Shown piece after piece: positions 10,515 through 51,871 of a stretch of DNA of 64,000 nucleotides (positions are counted from its first letter, which is position 1; the number at the start of each line of letters is the position of its first letter). This DNA comes from an uncultured Verrucomicrobiae bacterium (GTDB lineage: Bacteria > Verrucomicrobiota > Verrucomicrobiia > Chthoniobacterales > UBA10450), in contig CAVTMK010000001.1 in NCBI GenBank assembly GCA_963735805.1, positions 320,001-384,000 on the forward strand, in the 5' to 3' direction. Position numbers and translations under genes: made by a program. The notes beneath the pieces are model-generated. The model had not been told where the DNA came from. It saw only the letters and a program-made list of their open reading frames with translations, and did not search any database.

Positions 10515-11276
10515 TTAGCTTTGTCGCTGTGGAGGTGGTTTATAGTAAACGTGAAGCGTGACTTTGCTGTCGACCGGCTTGCCGTCGCGAAATGCCGGGA
10601 TGAATTTTGCCCCATTGAAATCAGTCATTGCTGCTTCGCCGAAATTCAGAAACGGAGGTTCCTCGGACAGTACCTGCATGCTTTTCAGATTTCCCGCAGC
10701 GTCGACCTCCGCCTGGAGTTCGACCGCACCGGTCAAGCTCACCGTCGTAGGGACTTGAGGATAGTGCGTCCCCGTGAACTTCGAGTCCTGACCAACAAAC
10801 GGTTGGGGATCGATAAAATCGGTTTCCTTATCTATTTCCGGCAGTTGCTGATTGGCGAAGATGCGCAACCGCGGTTTGCCATTCACTACGGCGAACCTCA
10901 CTGTGCCGTAGAAAACGGCAAGAACCGGTTGATGATTGTGGATCGCTGGAATGAATTTCGTGGTGGCCAGACGTTTTAATACTTCTTTCTCGAGCAGCTC
11001 CGATCCCTTCGTGCCGCGATAAGTCCCGCTCGTCGCAATGTTCCCAGTCGGTGCCACGAGACAGGTAAACATAACCGCAGCGTCTTTTTGCCCCTTCTTA
11101 ATCAAATCGACAGTATCGATTGTGTTGATCAACGAGTTGGGACTTGTTCCGACCAGCGCGGGTCGGAACTCCGGCAGCGCCGGCGTTGGTGTCGGCGTCG
11201 CAGGTTTCTTCGTTTGTGATGATGCAAGGTTCGCGCCGAGAAGCAAACCAATCACACAGTAGGTCCGTAGTCGCAT
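10515..11276 (-). CDS. Exported protein with two TonB C-terminal-like domains
   Basis: Signal peptide, PT-rich linker, two repeats ending KFIPA..(N/D)..PV. Confidence 0.75.
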   Translation of the reverse strand: MRLRTYCVIGLLLGANLASSQTKKPATPTPTPALPEFRPALVGTSPNSLINTIDTVDLIKKGQKDAAVMFTCLVAPTGNIATSGTYRGTKGSELLEKEVLKRLATTKFIPAIHNHQPVLAVFYGTVRFAVVNGKPRLRIFANQQLPEIDKETDFIDPQPFVGQDSKFTGTHYPQVPTTVSLTGAVELQAEVDAAGNLKSMQVLSEEPPFLNFGEAAMTDFNGAKFIPAFRDGKPVDSKVTLHVYYKPPPQRQS

Positions 11277-11324
11277 GGCGGAATAGGCAAGCAAAACGCG
11301 GCGCTTTTGCAAGGAGAACTGAAT

Positions 11325-12953
11325 CTATGCCGCGACGGGCATCTGGTTCACCGCCGCGATTCGGTGCACAATTTTATGACGTTGGAAATAAGCAATGAGC
11401 GCATCACGGGTTTGCACAGGATGCCGAATGGAATTGGACTCCGGTCGGTCGAGGAACGCGCGTAATTTCATGAAATGATGGCCGCCGCTGCGTGCGTCGA
11501 AACTGTTAAACGCTATGGCGTATTTCTTGTTGCGATCCAGGGGCTCCCCGCTAGACAGCGTCATCGAGACGATTCGACAGCCGTCGCCGCGACCTTCTGC
11601 CTTCACGTCAAACCCAAGAAGGTTGCGCTTCTCGTGGCTGCCGAACACTTCCTCCATCGCAATTTTTATTTCCTGAGGCGAGAGGCGCGCTGTCACGATG
11701 TAGTTTTCGAACGGAATCACATTCCAGATATCGTTGACTGTTTTGGGCCCGGCGACCAAATCGGATTTGTCATCGAATGTTCCGTGCATGACACCACTAA
11801 CGGGTATATGTCGGTCCAGCAACGTTTCCATTATCGCCGTCCCGATCAGCATCTCCACGTCGCTCGGTCGACCGGGGGCACTTCGTCCTCGCAGCGTCTC
11901 GGCAACGTCGCCGATCGGATCGGACAACGTCTCCTCCGATTCGGCAAGCTGCGATTTTGCTCGTGAAACGATCGCACTATCAAAGGCGACCCGATTGTCC
12001 ATCAACTCGCAGATTGCTGCCCGCTGCAGCAGCTTTTTGGAATTGCGGTCGAATAGAAGGTCGACGCGCCCCACGTGAATCCCGAAATGATCAGCCTGCG
12101 TAAACAACACGCCATTTGTTAGCCGATTCGGAATGTCCTGGTGAGTATGGCCGGCGATAAAGGCTACGATCTCTGGAAATTCAGAAGTTAACGCCATTAC
12201 CGTATTGGCGAAGTCATCACCGCCGGTGCGATTCTTTAGTCCCATGTGACCCGTCACCACTATCGCGTCCGCGCCCTTGCTCTTCGCCCTCGCGATGGCG
12301 CGGCGAACGACCTCGACGGGGTGCCGGAAATCAAGTCCCCGGGTAAATTCCGGCCAAAGCCAAAACTGCATTCCCGGCGTAGTGACCCCGATAATTGCGA
12401 GTTTGATTCCCGCAATCTCCTTCAAGATGAATGGCTGAATTCGTGCAAATGGATGTTTCGCATCTGGCAATTCGCCGGCCAATTTTCCTTCCATTTGCAT
12501 GTTCGCTCCAAGAACCGGCATGTTTGATTGTTGCAATGCGTGCTGAAAGCATTCCATCCCCCAATCGAATTCATGATTGCCGACGACCCAGGCGTCGTAT
12601 TCGAGATGATTGAGCAGATCGATCATCAGCGCGCCATTGTTGCGGAGACTTACATCGGTGCCCTGATACACGTCGCCGACGTCGATCAGGATCGAGTTTG
12701 GATTTTCCTGCCTCCAGCGTTTGATTTGTGTCGCGCAGCGCGCCAATCCGCCGCGATCTGGGCTTCCATCGTAGTCGAAGGTTGGCAAAATATGGCCGTG
12801 CAAATCCGTCGTGTGGAGGATTGAAATACAAACCGCGTCGGGGTTGAGAGCGGCAGCAGCGCTGGCGAGAGTCGGAACAGCGCTGACCAGCCCCGCTTGA
12901 CCGGCGAGTTTCAAAAACTTCCGCCTGCTCCAGGATGTGTGCGCGTCAAACAT
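11325..12953 (-). CDS. Tat-exported bifunctional metallophosphatase / 5'-nucleotidase
   Basis: SRRKFLK Tat motif; HTTDLHG, GD, GNHEFD and GHTH motifs; C-terminal 5'-NT domain. Confidence 0.9.
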   Translation of the reverse strand: MFDAHTSWSRRKFLKLAGQAGLVSAVPTLASAAAALNPDAVCISILHTTDLHGHILPTFDYDGSPDRGGLARCATQIKRWRQENPNSILIDVGDVYQGTDVSLRNNGALMIDLLNHLEYDAWVVGNHEFDWGMECFQHALQQSNMPVLGANMQMEGKLAGELPDAKHPFARIQPFILKEIAGIKLAIIGVTTPGMQFWLWPEFTRGLDFRHPVEVVRRAIARAKSKGADAIVVTGHMGLKNRTGGDDFANTVMALTSEFPEIVAFIAGHTHQDIPNRLTNGVLFTQADHFGIHVGRVDLLFDRNSKKLLQRAAICELMDNRVAFDSAIVSRAKSQLAESEETLSDPIGDVAETLRGRSAPGRPSDVEMLIGTAIMETLLDRHIPVSGVMHGTFDDKSDLVAGPKTVNDIWNVIPFENYIVTARLSPQEIKIAMEEVFGSHEKRNLLGFDVKAEGRGDGCRIVSMTLSSGEPLDRNKKYAIAFNSFDARSGGHHFMKLRAFLDRPESNSIRHPVQTRDALIAYFQRHKIVHRIAAVNQMPVAA

Positions 12954-14521: not shown

Positions 14522-15034
14522 ATGACAGCTGACGAGCTAAGATTGTCACAAGCACCGTTCAAGGCGAAGTATCGAGACCGTCCTGAAACGGCGCTTGTGA
14601 CTTTGCATGCGGAAGGTCGAGTCGGCGAAAATATCACCTGTAAAATCGAAACGGGAAAAGGCCGTGTCGAAACCGGGCTTCATCCGGCGACTGGCGGCGA
14701 TGGAAAAAGCGCGTGCTCAGCCGACATGCTGCTCGAAGCTCTGGTTGGGTGCGCAGGCGTCACCTTAAGCGCTGTCGCAACCGCTTTAAACATCCCGTTA
14801 CGCGGTGCGAAAATCCTAGCAGAAGGCGATCTAGATTTTCGCGGTACCCTCGGAGTTTCCAAAGATGTGCCAGTTGGTTTCAAAGAAATCCGACTCAATT
14901 TCGATTTAGATGCCGACGCGAGTGAAGAACAGCTCGCCACATTGATCCGACTGACAGAACGGTACTGTGTTGTCTATCAAACACTAAGCCAGCCGGCGAA
15001 CATCCACGTTTTGCATCGCCTGATATCGCGCTAA
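14522..15034 (+). CDS. OsmC family protein
   Basis: EALVGCAGVT, GDLDFRGTLG and TERYCVV motifs. Confidence 0.88.
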   Translation: MTADELRLSQAPFKAKYRDRPETALVTLHAEGRVGENITCKIETGKGRVETGLHPATGGDGKSACSADMLLEALVGCAGVTLSAVATALNIPLRGAKILAEGDLDFRGTLGVSKDVPVGFKEIRLNFDLDADASEEQLATLIRLTERYCVVYQTLSQPANIHVLHRLISR

Positions 15035-15045
15035 AATCTCCCCGT

Positions 15046-15882
15046 ATGCCGTTATACATGGACATTCACAATCTCCCGGAGGGAACGACTCCGGAAGATA
15101 TCGCGAAAGCCCACGCGAAGGATATGGAAACCCAGCGCAAATATGGCGTTGAGTACACCAAATATTGGATGAACGAGGGTGGACGGAAGGTCTTCTGCCT
15201 CTGCCATGCGCCAAACGCGGAAGCGGCAGAATGTGTACATCGTGAAGCACACGGGATGGCCGCGGAGAAGATTATTGAAATACAGCCCGAAGTAGCAGAA
15301 GGATTTTTCGGTAGTTCGGAAACGAATGGGGCAGGTGCGGTGGTGTTGCCGGGCGGGGGAGTTGATGCGCGCGATCCTGGAATCCGAACCGTTCTTTTCA
15401 CGGACGTTGTAAATTCCACGACGTTGACTCAATCGCTCGGTGACGAGGCGGCGCTCGCAATCCTCGGCGTGCATGACACGATTGTGCGGGACGCCTTGTC
15501 CGCCCTTGGCGGCCGCGAGATCAAGCATACTGGCGACGGGATCATGGCGTCCTTCATCTCCACAGCTGGCGCCGTTCGTTGCGCAATCCAGGTCCAGCGT
15601 GAGTTAGACAAACACGCAAAAACGAATCCCAAGGGCGCGCTCAAGGTTCGAGTCGGTGCCGCAGCGGGCGAACCTGTCGAGCAACACAATGATCTGTTTG
15701 GATCGACAGTTCAGCTGGCCTCCCGCTTATGTGCTCACGCGCAACCGGAACAAATCCTCGTATCGAACGCAATCGCCGAGTTATGTCTCGGAAAAGGCTT
15801 CCTCTTCGAAGATCTCGGCGAAATCATGCTCAAAGGCTTTGGTTCCCCGGTCCGCGCCCACGCCGCGGCATGGAAGCAGTGA
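15046..15882 (+). CDS. DUF4242 (SCO4226-like) domain fused to a class III adenylate/guanylate cyclase
   Basis: YMDIH...AHAKD...FCLCHAP...VHREAHG N-domain; FTDVVNST, KHTGDG and DLFG...ASRL cyclase motifs. Confidence 0.88.
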   Translation: MPLYMDIHNLPEGTTPEDIAKAHAKDMETQRKYGVEYTKYWMNEGGRKVFCLCHAPNAEAAECVHREAHGMAAEKIIEIQPEVAEGFFGSSETNGAGAVVLPGGGVDARDPGIRTVLFTDVVNSTTLTQSLGDEAALAILGVHDTIVRDALSALGGREIKHTGDGIMASFISTAGAVRCAIQVQRELDKHAKTNPKGALKVRVGAAAGEPVEQHNDLFGSTVQLASRLCAHAQPEQILVSNAIAELCLGKGFLFEDLGEIMLKGFGSPVRAHAAAWKQ

Positions 15883-35292: not shown

Positions 35293-36972
35293 TCACCGAT
35301 CCGACGCTTTCAGTTTATAGATTCTAAATTCCGGGGTCGACTCAAGCAACGTTGCGGTTTCGCTGAGATGCCGGGTCAGCTCGGGGTAAGACGTCAGCCA
35401 CCAGGACGTATTCGTGACAAAGACAAGATGCGTTGCCCCCTCACGACGCAATCGTTCCAGATCGCTGATAGCCTGCTGGCTGTTCTTTGGATTGCCGCCG
35501 TAAATTCCATTTTGCTCGAGAAAATGCCAACCTTTGCGCTTCGCATAATAGAATATGGCTGGATTGCCACCGTCCACGGCGACAATCAACGCATCGCTCG
35601 GCGTAATCTTGTTTAGTTCAAGGCCGGCATCGCGATGTTGCGCAGCTGATGATTCGTAAAGGGGCCGCACGTACAAGAAGGCCAGAATCGCGAACGAACT
35701 CGCAAGCAAAATCGATAATGCCACGGCCGTCACGCGCGAAGAAATTTTCGATTCAAAAAAGGCACAACCCGCACCCGCAAACGCAGCGGCGATGGGCACG
35801 AATGGCAGCTGGTACCAGGGATGGCGATTGCCGTAGCCGACGGCTACGACGAACAAAATCATGGTGGCCAACCACCAATCAAAGAGGCAGCTGAACCTCC
35901 TACGCGGGCTGCCCACAGCGCTACAGCGTTGCAGGCGTGGCGCTACAAACAAACCAATCAACGCTAAGACTGCCAAAACCGGCGTGAGACTCGACGTTGC
36001 AATCTGTCGCGCAATCTCCGAGTACCACGAGAAACTCTCCAGCCGGACTCCGCCGGCGCCAAAGAAATGATGCGGATAAAATCTCTCGGAGATTTGATAC
36101 GCATGCCAATACCACGCGACCGAAGGTAAGATCGCAACGGCGGCAAACAAAACGACCGCGCGATAAATTATTGGGCGTTTGACTCGCTCGCTCCCGCTCG
36201 CTCGGTCTGGTGACCTGCCCGTCCATGTCGCTCGGCTCCCGCCGGCTCCATTCTGTGAAACGCCCGGCGTCTGGCACAGACGCCCTACAATGATATACGC
36301 CAGCGGCGCCGCGATCACGATGCTCGTGGCCTTGATCAGGATCGACAAGGAAATCGCAATCGCAGCCAGACAAAAAGAGATCATCCCGCGATCGCGAAGC
36401 CAAAGCAGGAAAAAATACAATCCGATGATCGCCAGGCTGAGCGACGGAACGTCTGGCATGAAAGAGCGTCCGGCAAAAACGTTCAGAGGCGCAAAAGCGT
36501 AGAAAAATGCAGCCCAAACGGCCGACGTATCGCCGAAAATCTCGCGCACCAACAAAAAGAAAAATGGGAATGAGATAGCAAAGAAAATCACCGACTGGCT
36601 ACGCCCAATCCACTCGTGAATGCCGGCAAACTTGTAACAAATCGCTGCAAGGAAAGGCAAAATGGGAAACTCCGTTCCTACGTAGCCGCCTGAGCCGCCA
36701 GCCCAATCGATTTGCGGATAACCAAAACGAAAACCGTGTTCGAAAAAATTGCGCGCAATCGCCGCCACGTCGCTTTGTCTCCAGCTCCAATGATCGACGT
36801 AAGGCTGATCAATCATGATCAACCGGACCGCCACGGCCAGGATCCAGATTGCTATTACAATGTTGGCGACATAGAGGCGGTATGGATAGCGCGTCGCAGC
36901 AAAGGTCCGGTCCAGATCATCTGGCCGGCGCAGCGTCGCGACCCTGGGATTTACGCGCTCTTTGATGCGCAT
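35293..36972 (-). CDS. ArnT/PMT-like (GT39/83) integral membrane glycosyltransferase with in-frame repeat insertions
   Basis: WRQSDVAAIARNF, EFP, GR, SFMPD and IK motifs; many TM segments; start uncertain. Confidence 0.88.
   Translation of the reverse strand: MRIKERVNPRVATLRRPDDLDRTFAATRYPYRLYVANIVIAIWILAVAVRLIMIDQPYVDHWSWRQSDVAAIARNFFEHGFRFGYPQIDWAGGSGGYVGTEFPILPFLAAICYKFAGIHEWIGRSQSVIFFAISFPFFFLLVREIFGDTSAVWAAFFYAFAPLNVFAGRSFMPDVPSLSLAIIGLYFFLLWLRDRGMISFCLAAIAISLSILIKATSIVIAAPLAYIIVGRLCQTPGVSQNGAGGSRATWTGRSPDRASGSERVKRPIIYRAVVLFAAVAILPSVAWYWHAYQISERFYPHHFFGAGGVRLESFSWYSEIARQIATSSLTPVLAVLALIGLFVAPRLQRCSAVGSPRRRFSCLFDWWLATMILFVVAVGYGNRHPWYQLPFVPIAAAFAGAGCAFFESKISSRVTAVALSILLASSFAILAFLYVRPLYESSAAQHRDAGLELNKITPSDALIVAVDGGNPAIFYYAKRKGWHFLEQNGIYGGNPKNSQQAISDLERLRREGATHLVFVTNTSWWLTSYPELTRHLSETATLLESTPEFRIYKLKASDR
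36168..36290. repeat. GTAG-type REP doublet inside the glycosyltransferase gene, interrupted by a 70-bp element
   Basis: GGCGTTT[70 bp + TT]CTGTGAAACGCC-CGGCGTCTGGCACAGACGCCCTACAA. Confidence 0.85.
36181..36250 (-). mobile_element. 70-bp micro-insertion element, copy 1 (AA/TT flanking duplication)
   Basis: Homologous to 38442-38510; removing it plus one TT restores a perfect hairpin. Confidence 0.7.
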
Positions 36973-37043
36973 CGTGCAAGCGTCTTGACAGCTGCTGTAA
37001 AGTCAATCGTGTAGGGGAATCTCAAATCCGGAGAAGAGATAGC

Positions 37044-37613
37044 ATGAAATCGACGGCTCTCATTCCTCAGCCGAAGTTGGGCTCCGTTGCAGGTTTGTTC
37101 GCACTAGTCCTGCTTTTCACTTCCGGGATTGGCGTGGTGCATGGACAAAACGAGCCGATTCTCGTGCCTGATGCCATCGATTATCAGAAACTCCTTCCTC
37201 TTTTGCCGGAGCCGCCTCAAGGCTGGGTCGCTGATAAAGCGGAAGGATCAACGGAAGACGTTGGCGGATTCAGGATCACAAATGTACATCGCGACTATCA
37301 CAAGGGCGACGGTGACAAGGTCCCAACAGCCGCGATCAGCATACTCGATTCCATATCGAACCCGGATTACGTGAATGCCACGACCACTGCCTGGAATAGC
37401 AACAACGAAAGCAGCGAAGGTTACGGCAAGTCCGTCACTATCGACGGCAATGCTGGTTTCGAAGCCTTCGAGAAAGAAAGCAAACACGCCACTCTCTGGG
37501 TAATGATTGCCAAGCGTTATTTCGTTCAGATCGAGCTACAGAACCAGGACCCGAAGGAATTGCAGGAATGGGTCAAACGCGTCGATCTAAAGAAATTAGC
37601 GGCAATCAAATGA
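37044..37613 (+). CDS. Secreted hypothetical protein
   Basis: Signal peptide ending VHG/Q; LLPEPPQGW...VDLKKL. Confidence 0.8.
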   Translation: MKSTALIPQPKLGSVAGLFALVLLFTSGIGVVHGQNEPILVPDAIDYQKLLPLLPEPPQGWVADKAEGSTEDVGGFRITNVHRDYHKGDGDKVPTAAISILDSISNPDYVNATTTAWNSNNESSEGYGKSVTIDGNAGFEAFEKESKHATLWVMIAKRYFVQIELQNQDPKELQEWVKRVDLKKLAAIK

Positions 37614-37625
37614 CAAGGTGCAGCT

Positions 37626-37653
37626 TGTCATCCTGAGCAAAGCAAAGGATTTC
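37626..37653. repeat. Single CGTC/TGTCAT-type REP
   Basis: TGTCATCCTGAGCAAAGCAAAGGATTTC. Confidence 0.65.
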
Positions 37654-37658
37654 ACTGT

Positions 37659-38375
37659 TCACTCCTGTTTCTGTTCCTCGCTTGCCATCGGCACGAAACG
37701 CACCGGCAACGTAGCGCTTTGTTTCAATTGGCCGTTTTTCTTTTCCAGCAGGTACAATTCCTGGGCGAACCTCTCGCCGACGGGAATGACCATGCGCCCG
37801 CCGTCTTTCAATTGATCGACGAGCGACTGTGGAACCTTCTCCGGCGCACACGTCACGATGATGGCGTCGAATGGCGCATGTTCCGGCCAGCCCTTGTAAC
37901 CGTCACCGGTTTTCAGATGCACATTTTTGTAACCAAGTCTCTGCAGTGTCGCCTCGGCATTTTTCGCCAACGGTTCGACGATCTCTATTGAATAAATCTC
38001 CGCCACGAGCTCAGCCAGAATTGCCGCCTGATACCCTGAGCCAGTCCCAATTTCCAAAACCCGATCGCCTGGCTGCAGCCGCAGCTGCTCGGTCATGAAC
38101 GCCACGATGTATGGTTGCGAAATGGTTTGGCCGTAACCGATCGGCATCGGGCCATCTTCATAAGTCGCAGCGCGCGAGTCCGGGGTCACGAATTCTTCCC
38201 GTGGAACTTTTGCCATTGCCGCGAGCACCCGTTGGTCATGGATACCGCGTGTCGCCAACTGCTGTTGAACCATGAGCTGACGTTGGGCCACAAAATCCGG
38301 GCCTGATGTTGGCCTTTGCCCACAAGCAGTTGCCGCGAGCGCTGCGATCACGAAGGATTGCCAAACTCGCTCCAC
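37659..38375 (-). CDS. pcm: Protein-L-isoaspartate O-methyltransferase, with a lipoprotein-like N-terminus
   Basis: GQTISQP, LEIGTGSGYQAA, APFDAI and VRFVP motifs; ATAC lipobox-like. Confidence 0.95.
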   Translation of the reverse strand: MERVWQSFVIAALAATACGQRPTSGPDFVAQRQLMVQQQLATRGIHDQRVLAAMAKVPREEFVTPDSRAATYEDGPMPIGYGQTISQPYIVAFMTEQLRLQPGDRVLEIGTGSGYQAAILAELVAEIYSIEIVEPLAKNAEATLQRLGYKNVHLKTGDGYKGWPEHAPFDAIIVTCAPEKVPQSLVDQLKDGGRMVIPVGERFAQELYLLEKKNGQLKQSATLPVRFVPMASEEQKQE

Positions 38376-38398
38376 CCGACAAAATAGTGCAGATTGCC

Positions 38399-38518
38399 TG
38401 TCATTCCGAGCGAAACCGCCCGTCCGGCTCGGAGTCGAGAACGGAGCGGTTGGGGAAAACGCGACAGAGACGGGCAGGCCGAGAGGCCGAGTGAGCGGTG
38501 CGAACGAGTCAAATCTCT
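38399..38518. repeat. CGTC/TGTCAT REP carrying nested insertions, directly upstream of thrS
   Basis: TGTCATTCCGAGCG[~19 bp]GAGTCGAGAA[69 bp]AAATCTCT. Confidence 0.75.
38442..38510 (+). mobile_element. 69-bp micro-insertion element, copy 2 (AA flanking duplication)
   Basis: CGGAGC...GCGACA..GACGGGCAGG...CCGAG.GAGCGG.GCGA.CGAGTC, shared with the reverse complement of 36181-36250. Confidence 0.7.
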
Positions 38519-38525
38519 AATCATA

Positions 38526-40574
38526 ATGGCTGAAGAACGCAAAACGTTAGAGCAACGCGAGCAAATGACAGATCTGGAACGTCTTCGTCACTCAGCTTCC
38601 CATGTATTGGCGACGGCAATCTTGAAAATCTGGCCCGAAGCGCAGTTCGCCGCGGGGCCACCGGTGGAGACCGGTTTTTATTACGATGTCGATCTTCCGC
38701 ACCGCATTTCGCCCGACGATTTCGAAAAGATCGAGGCGGAGATGAAAAAGGAGATCAAAGCGAACCATCCGTTCGAGCGGGTTGAAGTCTCGCGCGATGA
38801 CGCGCTCGCGCTTGGGAAGAAAGGCCGGCTTGCCGCACTTGGCGAGCGACCCGAGCCAAGCAAATTCAAGCTCGATATTATCGAAAACATTCCGGCTGAC
38901 GAAAAGATCTCGCTCTATCGCAGCGGAGATTTCATCGATCTTTGCGCTGGGCCACACGTGATGCGCACGGGAAATATTGGCGCATTCAAGCTCACGAGCG
39001 TTGCAAGCGCCTACTACAAAGGCGACGAAAAAAATCCGCAACTACAGCGCGTTTACGGTACCGCCTTCAAGACCAAAAAGGAACTCGACGAGTATTTCGC
39101 CATGCTCGAGGAAGCGAAGAAACGCGATCATCGCAAGCTTGGCAAGGAACTCGAACTTTTCGTTTTCGATGATGATGTCGGCCCCGGTCTCCCGATGTTT
39201 TTGCCGCGCGGGGCAGCCATCGCCGAAGAACTAGAGAAACTGGCAAAGGAAACAGAATTCGCAGCCGGCTACCAACGCGTGCGGACTCCGGAAATCGCAC
39301 GAGAGAGTCTCTACAAAAAGAGCGGCCACCTTCCCTACTACGCTGAATCGATGTTTCCGCCGATGACTTTGCTCGAGGAGAAGCATCGCAAAATTCTTGA
39401 GAATCTGAAGATCGCGCGTGTCAGCTTCTCAGCGAGTTTTGATGCAGCAAGTGAACGAGCTTGGCAAGACATACAAGCAGAACTTGCCTTGCCGGACGTT
39501 GACGAGGCTAAGCGCCAAAACATCAGTGAACGAATTGGACTGTTGAATCCGGTTCAGGATGAAGACCGCGCGGAGCTCGCGCGCATTGATGCAATGATTC
39601 AAACAGTTGGCGACAACTACTACCTCAAAGCGATGAATTGTCCGCATCACCACAAGTTATTCGCAGCGCTGCCTCGCAGTTATCGAGATCTGCCGCTGCG
39701 GCTCGCGGAGTACGGGACCGACTATCGGTATGAGAAAAGCGGCGAGTTGTTCGGGCTTATGCGGGTGCGCTCGCTGCACATGAATGACGCACATATCTAC
39801 TGCACCCCAGAGCAGTTCGAGGCGGAGTTCAACGCGGTGAACGAGATGTATCTGAATTATTTTAAGTTGTTCGGGATCGACAAATATCTAATGCGTTTCT
39901 CAACACATGATCCTTCGAAGCTCGGACAGAAGTTCGTCAACGAACCTGAGCTTTGGAAACAAACTGAAGAGATGACTCGGAATGTACTGAAGAATTCCGG
40001 AATCAATTATGTCGAAGTGCCTAACGAAGCGGCGTTTTACGGCCCAAAGATCGACGTGCAAGTCTGGAGCGTAATTGGACGGGAGTTCACGCTCGCCACT
40101 AATCAGGTCGATTTCGCGCAACCGCGCAATTTTGATCTTCGTTACAAAGACCGCGACAACACCGAAAAGATCCCGATCTGCATCCATCGCGCGCCGCTCG
40201 GTACGCATGAACGGTTCATCGGATTTTTGATCGAGCATTACGCCGGCAATTTCCCGTTGTGGCTGTCCCCGGAACAGGTGCGCATTCTCACGATCGGCGA
40301 CGATCCGACGCTATTGGATTACGCGCGATCGATTTTGAAGGAACTGCGATCTCATCAAGTCCGCGCGGAAATTGACGGCAGCAGCGACAAGATCAACGGC
40401 AAAATCCAGCGTGCCGAACAAATGAAGGTCCACACCATGTTTGTGATCGGAAAACGAGACATGGAAGCCGGCGCGGTGAGCGTCCGCGTTCACGGCAAAG
40501 GCAACCTCGGCGCGAAGCCGCGCACGCAGGCAGTCGCCGAAATCCTGGACAGTGTCAAAGCGCGCACGCCGTAG
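38526..40574 (+). CDS. thrS: Threonine--tRNA ligase (no TGS domain; large catalytic-domain insertion)
   Basis: RHSASH, DLCAGPH, RDHRKLG, MNCPHH, AFYGPKID and HRAPLG motifs. Confidence 0.97.
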   Translation: MAEERKTLEQREQMTDLERLRHSASHVLATAILKIWPEAQFAAGPPVETGFYYDVDLPHRISPDDFEKIEAEMKKEIKANHPFERVEVSRDDALALGKKGRLAALGERPEPSKFKLDIIENIPADEKISLYRSGDFIDLCAGPHVMRTGNIGAFKLTSVASAYYKGDEKNPQLQRVYGTAFKTKKELDEYFAMLEEAKKRDHRKLGKELELFVFDDDVGPGLPMFLPRGAAIAEELEKLAKETEFAAGYQRVRTPEIARESLYKKSGHLPYYAESMFPPMTLLEEKHRKILENLKIARVSFSASFDAASERAWQDIQAELALPDVDEAKRQNISERIGLLNPVQDEDRAELARIDAMIQTVGDNYYLKAMNCPHHHKLFAALPRSYRDLPLRLAEYGTDYRYEKSGELFGLMRVRSLHMNDAHIYCTPEQFEAEFNAVNEMYLNYFKLFGIDKYLMRFSTHDPSKLGQKFVNEPELWKQTEEMTRNVLKNSGINYVEVPNEAAFYGPKIDVQVWSVIGREFTLATNQVDFAQPRNFDLRYKDRDNTEKIPICIHRAPLGTHERFIGFLIEHYAGNFPLWLSPEQVRILTIGDDPTLLDYARSILKELRSHQVRAEIDGSSDKINGKIQRAEQMKVHTMFVIGKRDMEAGAVSVRVHGKGNLGAKPRTQAVAEILDSVKARTP

Positions 40575-50023: not shown

Positions 50024-51871
50024 ATGGATCTGGCCCTGACGTTAAAGAAACATTTCGGCTATGATCAATTCCGGCCGTTGCAACGAGAAATCATTACCGA
50101 CGCGCTCACAGGTCACGATCTGTTTGTGCTGATGCCCACCGGCGGCGGGAAATCGCTCTGTTTTCAATTGCCAGCTTTGATACACGAGGGTCTGACCATT
50201 GTGGTTTCGCCACTCATTTCGCTCATGAAAGATCAGGTGGACGCGCTACAAACCAGTGGGATCCCAGCTACCTACTTGAATTCGACACTGGACCGAAAGG
50301 ACGCAGCCATGCGGTGGCGCGGACTGCATCGTGGGGAGTACCGGATGCTCTATGTCGCACCCGAGCGACTGATGCTCCACACGTTTCTGGAACGAGCAGT
50401 GAACTGGAACATCGCGCAGGTTGCCATCGACGAAGCACATTGCATCAGCGAATGGGGCCACGATTTCCGGCCGGAATATCGCGAGCTCAAGAAATTGCGA
50501 ACGCATTTTCCGGACGTGCCAATGATGGCGCTGACTGCGACGGCTACCGGGCGGGTGCGGGACGATATCGTAAAGCAACTGAAGCTGCGTGAGCCGCGTT
50601 CTTACGTCGCCAGCTTTAACCGGCCAAATCTTACTTATCGAATAATCCCAAAAACAGCACCCTACGATCAACTACTCGAATTCATTCGCAGCCGGCCTAA
50701 CGACAGCGGGATCGTTTATTGTGCGAGCCGAAAAAGCGCCGATTCACTGGCGCGGAATCTCAGTGAAGACGGTTTAGCCGCGAAGCCGTACCACGCCGGC
50801 CTAACGAGTTCAGAGCGCACGAAAAATCAGGAAGCATTTCTGCGCGATGACGTTCGAGTGGTCACTGCGACGATCGCGTTCGGAATGGGAATCAATAAGC
50901 CGAACGTTCGCTTCGTCGTGCACCACGATCTTCCGAAAAACCTGGAGAGTTATTATCAAGAGACCGGGCGCGCCGGCCGCGACGGGTTGCCCGGCGAATG
51001 CATACTGCTCTTCAGTGCGAGCGATGTCGCCAAGCAGCTCCATTTCATCGATGAAAAGAGCGAGGCCGAAGCGCGCATTGCCCGGACACAGCTCCAACAA
51101 ATGGTGCATTTCGCCGAGACACGCGAATGCCGCCGCGCGACCCTGTTGCAATATTTCGGTGAGCAATATCCAGAGACGTCGTGCGAAAGCTGCGATAATT
51201 GCCTGACGCCACGCGAAACGTTTGATGGCACAATTCCGGCGCAGAAGTTTCTCTCCTGTGTTCATCGCATCCACGCGAAAAGCGGATTCGGATTTGGTTT
51301 GAATCATGTGGTCGATATTTTGCGTGGCGCAGACACAGAGGCCATCCGGCAACGAAGCCACAACGAGTTGTCTACTTACGGGATTGGTCGCGAATTGAAA
51401 CGGGATGCCTGGCAGGCCATCGGGCGGGAACTGCTACGCCTCGGGTTCGTCGAATGCGCACCTGGAAAGTTCGCGACCTTAAGGCTCGCGACGGCAGGCC
51501 GCGACGCCCTGCGCCGGCGCACAATGATCACGCTCACAAAGCAGATTGAAGTTGTCTCGCAGGCGCGGGAGCAAAAGCTACGCACTGGCGCGATTGAATG
51601 CGACGAAGTGTTGTTCGAGCGTCTGCGCGGCTTGCGGCGAAAACTGGCTGACGAACGCAGTGTGCCCGCTTACGTAATCTTCTCCGATGTCTCGCTTCGT
51701 GAAATGGCAAAAAATTATCCGACAACTACCGTCGAGTTTCGGCGAATTCCCGGCGTCGGAGAGAAAAAGCTGAAGGATTTTGCCGACGCATTTCTCAACG
51801 AAATCAAAAACTACCTCGCCAAAAGCGGTTTCAATGTTGTTTGTGATCGCCCTCAACCTTCATATAGGTGA
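50024..51871 (+). CDS. recQ: ATP-dependent DNA helicase RecQ
   Basis: MPTGGGKSLC, DEAHCISEWGHDFRP, QETGRAGRDG, RQC Zn motif and HRDC. Confidence 0.97.
   Translation: MDLALTLKKHFGYDQFRPLQREIITDALTGHDLFVLMPTGGGKSLCFQLPALIHEGLTIVVSPLISLMKDQVDALQTSGIPATYLNSTLDRKDAAMRWRGLHRGEYRMLYVAPERLMLHTFLERAVNWNIAQVAIDEAHCISEWGHDFRPEYRELKKLRTHFPDVPMMALTATATGRVRDDIVKQLKLREPRSYVASFNRPNLTYRIIPKTAPYDQLLEFIRSRPNDSGIVYCASRKSADSLARNLSEDGLAAKPYHAGLTSSERTKNQEAFLRDDVRVVTATIAFGMGINKPNVRFVVHHDLPKNLESYYQETGRAGRDGLPGECILLFSASDVAKQLHFIDEKSEAEARIARTQLQQMVHFAETRECRRATLLQYFGEQYPETSCESCDNCLTPRETFDGTIPAQKFLSCVHRIHAKSGFGFGLNHVVDILRGADTEAIRQRSHNELSTYGIGRELKRDAWQAIGRELLRLGFVECAPGKFATLRLATAGRDALRRRTMITLTKQIEVVSQAREQKLRTGAIECDEVLFERLRGLRRKLADERSVPAYVIFSDVSLREMAKNYPTTTVEFRRIPGVGEKKLKDFADAFLNEIKNYLAKSGFNVVCDRPQPSYR

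Follow-up and report, generated by a model that had tools for sequence, protein, structure and literature searches.

RESULTS

Two copies of a small mobile element

We describe a family of gene-less mobile DNA elements of 65-85 bp in the Chthoniobacterales, which are gained or lost precisely, end to end, at sites of the GA^A type and whose purine-rich strand has a conserved fold; these two observations carry the explanation developed below. The element is real and mobile. In the window, the whole stretch of 64,000 nucleotides that was analyzed, two diverged copies share the sequence skeleton written out by a first-pass annotation and are identical at 49 of 70 aligned positions (Table 1), and the core pattern matches the window exactly twice, at these copies, compared with no match in 100 shuffles. 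On the purine strand, AA lies on both sides of copy 1 and of copy 2, as first described. Relatives carry exact empty sites at both loci, the kind of orthologue that the annotation had proposed to look for, bearing out its view of an independently mobile, non-autonomous micro-element. The empty form of host 1 was found in relatives L039, L041, L042, and L043, and the host 2 site is empty in 8 of 24 relatives and occupied in 3 by elements of other lineages.

Table 1. Positions of the two copies, their predicted hairpins, and their hosts
Feature	Position	Strand	Remarks
Membrane glycosyltransferase gene	35293..36972	-	Pfam PMT_2, E 9e-14; copy 1 and its host lie in frame within it
Host 1	36170..36289	-	GTAG-type REP doublet, in frame
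Copy 1	36181..36250	-	70 bp, 72 with one AA; 90 bits under model R1, whose build included copy 1
Copy 1, 3' junction AA	36179..36180	-	
Copy 1, H3	36183..36204	-	Two tandem G.A steps, GGGA loop
Copy 1, H2	36205..36214	-	GTC-ACCA-GAC; arm varying most
Copy 1, invariant GA	36222..36223	-	May pair with terminal TC (36181-36182), closing the three-way junction
Copy 1, H1	36225..36251	-	Begins at inner A of left AA; stem A-T, T-A, G-C, tandem G.A, G-C, C-G, variable inner stem, GGGA loop
Copy 1, 5' junction AA	36251..36252	-	G before AA
Host 2	38399..38518	+	TGTCA-headed REP, directly upstream of thrS-like gene
Copy 2, 5' junction AA	38440..38441	+	G before AA
Copy 2	38442..38510	+	69 bp; 66 bits; H1 base decayed
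Copy 2, H1	38441-38467	+	
Copy 2, H2	38478-38487	+	
Copy 2, H3	38488-38508	+	
Copy 2, 3' junction AA	38511..38512	+	
Threonyl-tRNA synthetase-like gene	38526..40574	+	Recognized by eye from translation; likely start 15 bp past copy 2

Deleting copy 1 with one AA restores GGCGTTTC-TGT-GAAACGCC, and deleting copy 2 with one AA restores GTCGAGAAATCTCT, both as the annotation had it; the second host had been called a CGTC-REP, but its head reads TGTCA. Copy 1 and its AA, 72 bp together, also leave the PMT_2-type glycosyltransferase in frame as claimed, with 560 codons falling to 536 if they are removed, a difference of 24 residues. Only 1 and 0 of 15 terminal bases are complementary in the two copies, so the absence of terminal inverted repeats and the rejection of a classical MITE stand, although the accompanying word "non-palindromic" hides a conserved, covarying fold with G.A pairs. 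Copy 2 is present in contigs of three of four sequencing runs and is therefore no assembly artefact, and no joint in the run contigs skips exactly either copy, with copy 1 spanned by no listed contig and neither copy reached by the contigs of the one RNA run; gaps in coverage carry no weight as evidence here.

Scanning the genome and its relatives, another step that had been proposed, gave 41 matches in the genome itself and placed the element in 116 of 121 family genomes and in almost none outside the family. The acidobacterial matches sit on 1-3 contigs per genome and are possibly misbinned. No match was found in plasmids and phages, and the 13 pattern matches in viral contigs were all judged by eye to be chance, none having the full pattern. 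Searches of Rfam and the literature found no description of the element.

Target sites and hosts

The annotation had proposed AGAAA or a hairpin position as the target and a strict two-nucleotide AA core; the actual target is GA^A, with G before AA in 131/152 and 89/106 copies compared with 30% genome-wide, and the target information amounts to about 3 nt, approximately GAA(W). AA is found on the right side in 270 of 275 copies, but one subfamily, at seven places, repeats a single A and its empty host reads GAT. The AA is thus neither a true duplication nor a strict core, a cut after AA is excluded, and the copies do not share a target-site duplication of fixed length.

Most insertions lie within other repeats. 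REPs are among the hosts, in line with the parasitism first suggested, but so are attC-like sites, duplicates of tRNA and thiC 3' ends, heptamer repeats, and the element itself. Subtype A occupies 60 unrelated host contexts among 185 copies, and at a single attC-like site the inserted copies belong to subtype A, B, or C (11/4/1). Exact insertions were seen in thiC duplicates, at four GAA sites, and in tRNA duplicates (where copies lie antisense), as well as at a hicB-hicA-like junction, in the element's own arms, and in tandem, where the junctions have the sequence expected of a circle joined at the core; the conserved thiC and tRNA sequence gives exact empty sites. An intron of tRNA or thiC was considered and rejected, as the intact gene adjoins and the element sits in the 3'-end duplicate. 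A self-encoded target guide was likewise rejected, as no element-to-flank complementarity was found (over 304 position pairs, each examined in two ways, the highest z was 3.3).

These non-REP insertions largely refute the reading that the element has no mobility of its own and goes back to an old insertion that REP amplification, gene conversion, and local duplication have since spread and rearranged, a reading further opposed by the three subtypes in one site and the many contexts of subtype A; we regard it as very improbable. It does agree with the clustering of element lineages by host on the tree (29 changes vs 63 shuffled), with the turnover of whole REPs at the copy-1 site, and with bursts in G327 and G406 confined to one REP family. 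Given this clustering and the seven near-identical copies of G327, all within one REP family, many of the copies may owe their spread to REPs that carried them along.

The small target also bears on the first-pass guess of IS110-like or serine recombinase chemistry, for which we found no support. A MITE-like element mobilized by an IS110/IS1111 bridge-RNA recombinase at an AA core, comparable to MITEPpu9/ssr9, would fit the near-constant right-side AA and the IS110 genes in 40 of 75 genus genomes, and IS110-family elements are described in the cited accounts as targeting REPs and attC sites, circularizing at a dinucleotide, and yielding tandem non-autonomous copies (PMC12288879, PMC11187229). 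Such a recombinase would be expected to read about 12 nt (10-14 bp), which is at odds with a three-letter target in 60 contexts, with junction sequences that differ widely between copies, with the single-A subfamily, and with the missing complementarity to the flanks. In addition, none of the IS110 loci (52 in all) has the element's ends, only three single matches occur in 51 loci, and the IS110 of G000 itself has different ends, making this explanation a poor candidate in our estimation.

Fold of the purine-rich strand

Covariation analysis, also suggested at the outset, finds structure: the purine-rich strand forms a 5' hairpin, H1, followed by H2 and H3, which make up a three-way junction, with tandem G.A pairs. 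In this fold 91% of cells are paired and 15 of 19 pairs show compensatory change, as against 0 of 500 shuffles and at most 40% in slid controls, and the pairs of highest mutual information are all nested. At the inner A.G position, T-A, C-G, G-C, or A-T replaces A.G in 20 of 79 sequences. The left ends differ (TGGAG, TCGAG, CCGAG, CACGT, TACGC), yet the fold persists. For H3, the purine strand gives 5.7 pairs, compared with 3.3 for its complement and 4.3 +/- 0.08 for shuffles. Mismatches in the fold carry little strand signal (G.T 40 vs A.C 31). The invariant stem closing the junction has only 2 bp, and because its GA never varies (79/79) we can only infer that it pairs with the terminal TC. 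The fold would bring both ends of the element together.

Among 114 H2 loops, 42 are GNA triloops, 30 GNRA, 9 GNYA, and none UNCG, weakly favoring single-stranded DNA over RNA. If the fold instead acted as RNA, it might be a small ribozyme or a retro-element that splices or reverse-splices at GA^A. Three-way junctions, GNRA loops, and tandem G.A pairs are characteristic features of RNA, and the folding of copy 1 is slightly better when it is treated as RNA (z -1.55). In 72 of 150 cases, adding 2 to the element length gives a number divisible by 3, and 8 of 11 copies within called genes are sense. Standard folding z-scores of the element are not significant, and thermodynamic folding is uninformative because G.A pairs are not modeled as pairs. 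We consider an RNA role rather unlikely, since GNA triloops outnumber GNRA loops, orientation is random between co-directional genes (19 sense vs 22 antisense), copies lie antisense to tRNA duplicates, G000 has no reverse transcriptase, and Rfam 15 covariance models match neither copy, nor the elements in eight further loci.

Search for the mover

The annotation's statement that the window encodes no mobilizer was correct, and its suggested hunt for longer elements with the same ends around a transposase or recombinase ORF yielded none. Where a left-end match had no right end close by, the 170-330 bases examined showed a nested or truncated copy or a chance match, and no ORF-bearing long form was among these left-end matches. 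A Pfam scan of 104 neighboring proteins gave no transposase or recombinase family, and neither the clustering of 843 nearby ORFs nor the genes between paired copies nor a resolvase hunt in G000 gave a partner. Y2 genes, present in just 3 of the 201 family genomes, offered no partner either.

Y1 genes are present in 141 of 151 family genomes, but the 51 loci sampled out of 790 Y1 matches contained no element. In G327, one Y1 gene lies between two identical element-bearing REPs; this is a direct duplication of about 270 bp, and the gene's own flanking repeats differ. By the IS200/IS605 rule, guide tetranucleotides 5' of the hairpins pair with the cut sites. The presumed pairing of the invariant GA with TC looks like one half of the right-end rule, but no left guide, no guide tetranucleotide from which a cut at AA or GA could be predicted, and no covariation with the flanks was seen. 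No autonomous parent of the IS200/IS605 type with the same ends was found in the sampled search.

The missing Y1 link in those 51 loci would agree with the same single-stranded fold and mobility served by another mover, a protein of the host or specific to the family, for example XerC/D, the integron integrase, a small protein of the GIY-YIG type, or some nuclease-ligase not yet described, which we hold to be unlikely. One of five tyrosine recombinase matches in G000 adjoins a cassette array with many copies. GIY-YIG genes are present in every one of 41 genus genomes, and one such gene is flanked by a TGTCA-REP, a repeat that shares the element's GA-GC-GAA-GC-GA grammar; against this, 60 GIY-YIG and four-helix-bundle loci held one element match and no partner. 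Integron integrases act at attC-type sites with a GTT/AAC core, which the element lacks, and the majority of copies are far from integrons. These integrases likewise read folded single-stranded DNA (PMC8266576).

DISCUSSION

The reading we prefer, tentatively and at slightly less than even confidence, is that the family is recognized by its shape on one strand and moved in trans by an HUH Y1 (RAYT-like) enzyme. The exposed purine strand would fold so that the two junctions lie side by side, and an enzyme supplied in trans would cut and rejoin at G^A or GA^, releasing a single-stranded circle that could insert after another GA(A) without a true duplication. The same insertion route might produce tandem and nested copies. 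Copies would persist chiefly where the DNA is neutral or repetitive to begin with, and there they may then also be copied along with the host repeat. The weakest step is the identity of the mover as an HUH tyrosine (Y1, RAYT-like) transposase; known RAYTs cut at C|T or C|A. Strand specificity, binding of imperfect single-stranded hairpins, cutting at a dinucleotide, and insertion with no target repeats are all attributed to Y1 enzymes (PMC8266576, PMC3479197, PMC3333891). It is also conceivable, but improbable, that the family represents a new class of mobile DNA, in which a non-Watson-Crick single-stranded fold with tandem G.A pairs aligns the junctions, GA(A) is the only target, and the element is moved by a domesticated or so far undescribed enzyme or itself contributes to excision as a DNA or RNA catalyst.

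How tiny gene-less bacterial repeats such as REPs and SDRs move is still unsettled. The family offers several hundred exact insertions whose empty sites are known, a fold supported by covariation, and a three-letter target, making the question testable with oligonucleotides and a handful of candidate enzymes from one genome. Repeats with G.A-paired stems are overlooked by palindrome finders and standard folding programs. The element changes proteins in frame and occupies cassette sites in one of the commonest soil lineages, and, if the enzyme is found, a scar-free insert of 72 bp targeted to GA(A) could serve as a compact cargo tag.

Comparison with known systems

Classical MITEs (ERIC, RUP, Correia) resemble the element in size, lack of genes, and insertion near or in genes, but the element has no terminal inverted repeats of the 15-30 bp that define them and no true target duplication. 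PATEs, which are non-autonomous IS200/IS605 derivatives, share asymmetric ends, hairpins, the lack of terminal inverted repeats, and insertion 3' of a short motif, and the element's commonest right end, TCAA, resembles the right cleavage site of IS608. Unlike PATEs, the element has no IS200/IS605 parent that we could find and no replication-strand bias (17 vs 15), and its H1 begins at the junction, leaving no room for a 5' guide.

The small dispersed repeats (SDRs; Elhai 2008) of cyanobacteria are also very small and insert precisely into other repeats; they are about 21-27 nt long, and no mover is known for them. The element is three times longer and has a G.A-paired junction. SDR5 is described as inserting into HIP1 (PMC4390886). 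The IS91 family (Y2, rolling circle) has HUH chemistry and no target repeat, and its reported target, GTTC/CTTG, is GAAC/CAAG on the other strand, near (G/C)AA (PMC13181058); the register differs from the element's by one base, and Y2 genes are rare in the family. MITEPpu9/ssr9, of the IS110-family ISPpu9, is a non-autonomous module in REPs, recorded with a dinucleotide at both ends and tandem copies (PMC12288879), features that the element shares. MITEPpu9 has 43- and 16-bp end boxes in common with its parent and a single REP target, whereas the element has no parent among the loci searched, ends conserved by fold, and many unrelated targets.

A further likeness in form is with REPINs/BIMEs (RAYT/TnpA-REP Y1), which are tiny, gene-less, and built on strand-specific imperfect single-stranded hairpins, and covariation suggests that the element also forms such hairpins on one strand. 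A short cut site, the lack of a target repeat, tandem arrays, and observed excision are reported for them (PMC3116915, PMC8266576, PMC3333891). Unlike a REPIN or BIME, the element carries no GTAG/CGTC tag in the alignment and, in the 51 Y1 loci sampled, flanks no gene as its cognate; it is a single asymmetric unit rather than an inverted REP pair, with tandem G.A stems, a three-way junction, and GA^A in place of C|T.

Two copies and a wider family

The first-pass annotation had described two diverged copies of a gene-less ~70-bp repeat (the micro-element), and both its coordinates and the skeleton that the copies share (49 of 70 aligned positions identical) held up; a core pattern matches the window only at these two places and never in 100 shuffles. 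As claimed, the sequence GGCGTTTC-TGT-GAAACGCC is restored, in frame, when 72 bp are taken out at copy 1, and GTCGAGAAATCTCT when 71 bp are taken out at copy 2. The first of these deletions shortens a PMT_2-type glycosyltransferase, with no stop, to 536 codons instead of 560. Read on the purine-rich strand, both copies have AA on either side, and copy 2 is present in contigs from three of the four sequencing runs examined.

Further copies were sought with R1, a covariance model built from 79 sequences, which gave 41 matches in the source genome (E <= 0.1, among the 150 of 1453 candidates scored). R1 matched 116 of 121 genomes and all 26 genera of the source family, a tally that includes unpublished genomes G300, G395 and G412, and, in a phylum-wide draw, 3 of 151 genomes: the source genome, another member of the family and a weak match at the level of the order. 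Named records matching the left-end pattern were mostly Candidatus Udaeobacter, Spartobacteria or Chthoniobacterales, among the 127 matches listed. Three main subtypes can be parsed by their right ends, GA(G/A)TC (~70 bp), GAGTTTC (~79 bp) and GATAC (~77 bp), and further forms keep the fold although their left ends are very different.

Coordinates of the micro-element copies and of elements seen nearby (G000, source genome; C, its contigs; L, loci; other G numbers, comparison genomes)
Feature	Location	Strand	Remarks
Copy 1	window 36181-36250	-	in GTAG-type REP doublet within glycosyltransferase gene
Copy 2	window 38442-38510	+	in TGTCA-headed REP upstream of thrS-like gene
Weak third R1 match	window 50987-51044	-	12.5 bits, E 0.11; probably chance
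Second GTAG-type REP	window 35880-35950		in frame, same gene as copy 1
Extra 19 bp in REP hosting copy 2	window 38413-38431		absent from other copies of that REP; possibly another small insertion
Small GIY-YIG genes	G000:C2:1241093-1242007, 797682-797974, 1433153-1433716, 1482313-1482927		directly behind tRNA genes
Compact IS110 (316-aa frame), attC-like sites	L001, L002 (G000:C2:245700-246700; C1:22400-23500)		two near-identical copies
Long cassette array	G000:C2:1256500-1279200		IntI-like tyrosine recombinase at 1278542; additional attC-like sites on C1 and C3
310-340-aa Y1 genes	L341:11800-12850 and 14620-15760		between short inverted repeats (TIRYT-like); numerous in source family
thiC 3' end duplicated behind intact thiC	L336:2000-2300 and 10600-12904; L148, L221, L201, L342		in several genomes; accumulates micro-element; resembles attachment-site remnant
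Different subtypes head-to-head	L584 (G305:C21), L582 (G029:C8), L140 + L149 region	opposite	around cassette sites; also three-deep nestings
First 60-90 bases of thrS-like gene duplicated	L007, L014, L020, L028		TGTCA-REP between copies

The tRNA-adjoining GIY-YIG genes end with the tRNA 3' end repeated; behind tRNA-Pro there are three such units in tandem, one every 308 bp. In relatives, versions with a 40-60 nt spacer and no gene occur. The arrangement resembles a mini-element that integrates at tRNAs and carries a nuclease but no integrase.

Mobility and hosts

Empty-site orthologues exist for both copies. Among 16 relatives' loci at the copy-1 site, the same REP is exactly empty in four and an empty variant occurs in one; one locus holds the element, one a remnant, four a different REP and two no REP, and three are unreadable. 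The gene tree rejects a grouping of the two filled alleles into one clade (p-AU 1e-61). At the copy-2 site, the REP is empty in 8 of 24 relatives, with other micro-element lineages in three, a decayed one in one and no REP in 12. In copy-1 orthologues different REPs are exchanged in frame, and one (L037, in G015) reads CACAG-TC-AAACGC, which looks like a deletion sparing only the final TC of the micro-element.

Taken alone, these two site patterns could be explained by REP turnover. Independent mobility is established by insertions at other hosts: at four different GAA sites, the fourth of them decayed and identified by eye, in thiC 3'-end duplicates, whose empty form is conserved coding sequence; in duplicated 3' ends of tRNA-Cys, -Arg and -Met adjoining intact tRNAs; in attC-like sites within cassette arrays, where a single site has received subtypes A (11), B (4) and C (1); in heptamer repeats; in head-to-tail tandems (15 of 256 copies); and within arms of other copies. 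The labels attC-like, thrS, thiC, hicB and heptamer repeat were assigned by recognising the sequences rather than from a database. The proposed targeting of REPs fits both window hosts but is too narrow for these insertions. Against a wholly free element, lineages group by host (the label changes 29 times, compared with 63 after shuffling, on a rough tree from few columns), and seven copies in G327, 0-1 base apart, all lie within one REP family (two left-arm variants).

A fold with tandem G.A steps

On the purine-rich strand hairpin H1 comes first and starts at the inner of the two left-hand A's; G-A, a loop of 5-7 nt, hairpins H2 and H3, and T-C-A-A follow in turn. Covariation supports a structured element: in A2, the alignment used for the fold, 91% of cells were paired and 15 of 19 pairs showed compensatory change, the structure being derived from the same sequences on which it was scored. 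None of 500 shuffles reached this pairing, a test inflated by sequence relatedness and with outer H1 letters preset by the search pattern, and slid controls stayed at <= 40%. Pairs with the highest mutual information are nested without exception. Of the three conserved tandem G.A steps, the inner one is A.G in 54 sequences and Watson-Crick in a quarter (T-A 10, C-G 5, G-C 3, A-T 2), swaps which show that those positions face each other. The invariant G-A could pair with the terminal T-C, bringing both junctions side by side, a pair that we only infer, given its lack of variation and its partial fit to subtype C.

H2 loops (n=114) comprise 42 GNA triloops, 30 GNRA, 9 GNYA and no UNCG, and GNA triloops are a DNA motif rather than an RNA motif. 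Orientation is random relative to transcription (19 vs 22 between co-directional genes, on rough gene calls) and to GC skew (17 vs 15), folding energy z-scores of the micro-element are not significant, and G.T vs A.C mismatches (40 vs 31) add little to the strand question. The complement strand is unable to form the G.A steps, which according to PMC8163305 stack strongly in DNA. We favour a fold acting as DNA rather than RNA, short of proof.

Target site

The base before the left AA is G in 131 of 152 copies and C in 20, many being tandem junctions; an independent metagenome set has G in 89 of 106, the genome-wide share being 30%. The left AA, preset by the search pattern in most collected copies, is found in 29 of 32 copies of an unbiased genome set, and AA stands on the right in 270 of 275. 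One subfamily (seven places) is inserted in GAGA^TAAG, and 10 of 12 empty copies of that host in the source genome read GAT, so that a single A is repeated there; one further copy lies in GAGA^CATC, which is how 15 of 23 empty copies of its REP read, more than show any other form. The cut would therefore be G^A or GA^, with A preferred next. A cut after AA is excluded by the GAGA^TAAG subfamily, unless that subfamily mutated. Of the AA duplication first proposed, the flanking AA stands, but the apparent duplication is one element A plus target letters. In 60 host contexts, no element position proved to pair with the flanks (304 position pairs, two ways each; highest z 3.3).

Candidate movers

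No mover emerged from the loci and genes surveyed. R1 had no match at 51 loci of Y1 genes (RAYT-type HUH tyrosine transposases), three at 51 IS110 loci, all single unrelated copies, and one at 60 GIY-YIG and four-helix-bundle loci. No transposase or recombinase is among the 104 proteins encoded nearby, and of the left-end matches read onward, none ran into a gene or belonged to a longer element with an ORF. The source genome (94% complete) gave no RT or resolvase match, five for tyrosine recombinases, three for IS110 and a weak one for Y1. Among kin genomes, Y1 genes occur in 141 of 151, IS110 in 40 of 75 and Y2 (IS91-type) in 3 of 201; the Y1 and Y2 tallies include the same unpublished genomes, with G552, also unpublished, one of the three Y2 positives, and only the family R1, Y1 and Y2 tallies use such genomes. 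The one exception is a Y1 gene in G327 that has an identical REP carrying the micro-element on either side, but these REPs belong to a direct duplication of ~270 bp and the gene has different repeats of its own.

A Y1 enzyme ranks first as candidate mover, since its documented traits match and it is nearly always present in kin, although we hold this somewhat less likely than not because both a guide motif, judged by the IS608 scheme, and a physical link are missing. Enzymes of this type recognise an imperfect ssDNA hairpin on one strand only, cut at a site of 2-3 nt and leave the target unduplicated (PMC8266576, PMC3479197, PMC3333891).

Comparison with known systems

The micro-element is real, mobile and family-wide; what defines it is a fold of one strand with G.A pairs, together with a GA^A target, and our confidence in its mobility and fold is high. 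It is apparently undescribed, with no match in Rfam and no earlier description in the open-access papers searched (subscription papers and ISfinder lay outside the search). Compared with systems described in PMC12288879, PMC11187229, PMC3116915, PMC3733652, PMC4390886 and PMC13181058, it departs in defining features from MITEs and IS110 passengers, and it works like a REPIN or an IS200/IS605 derivative, yet departs from both of these in defining features too.
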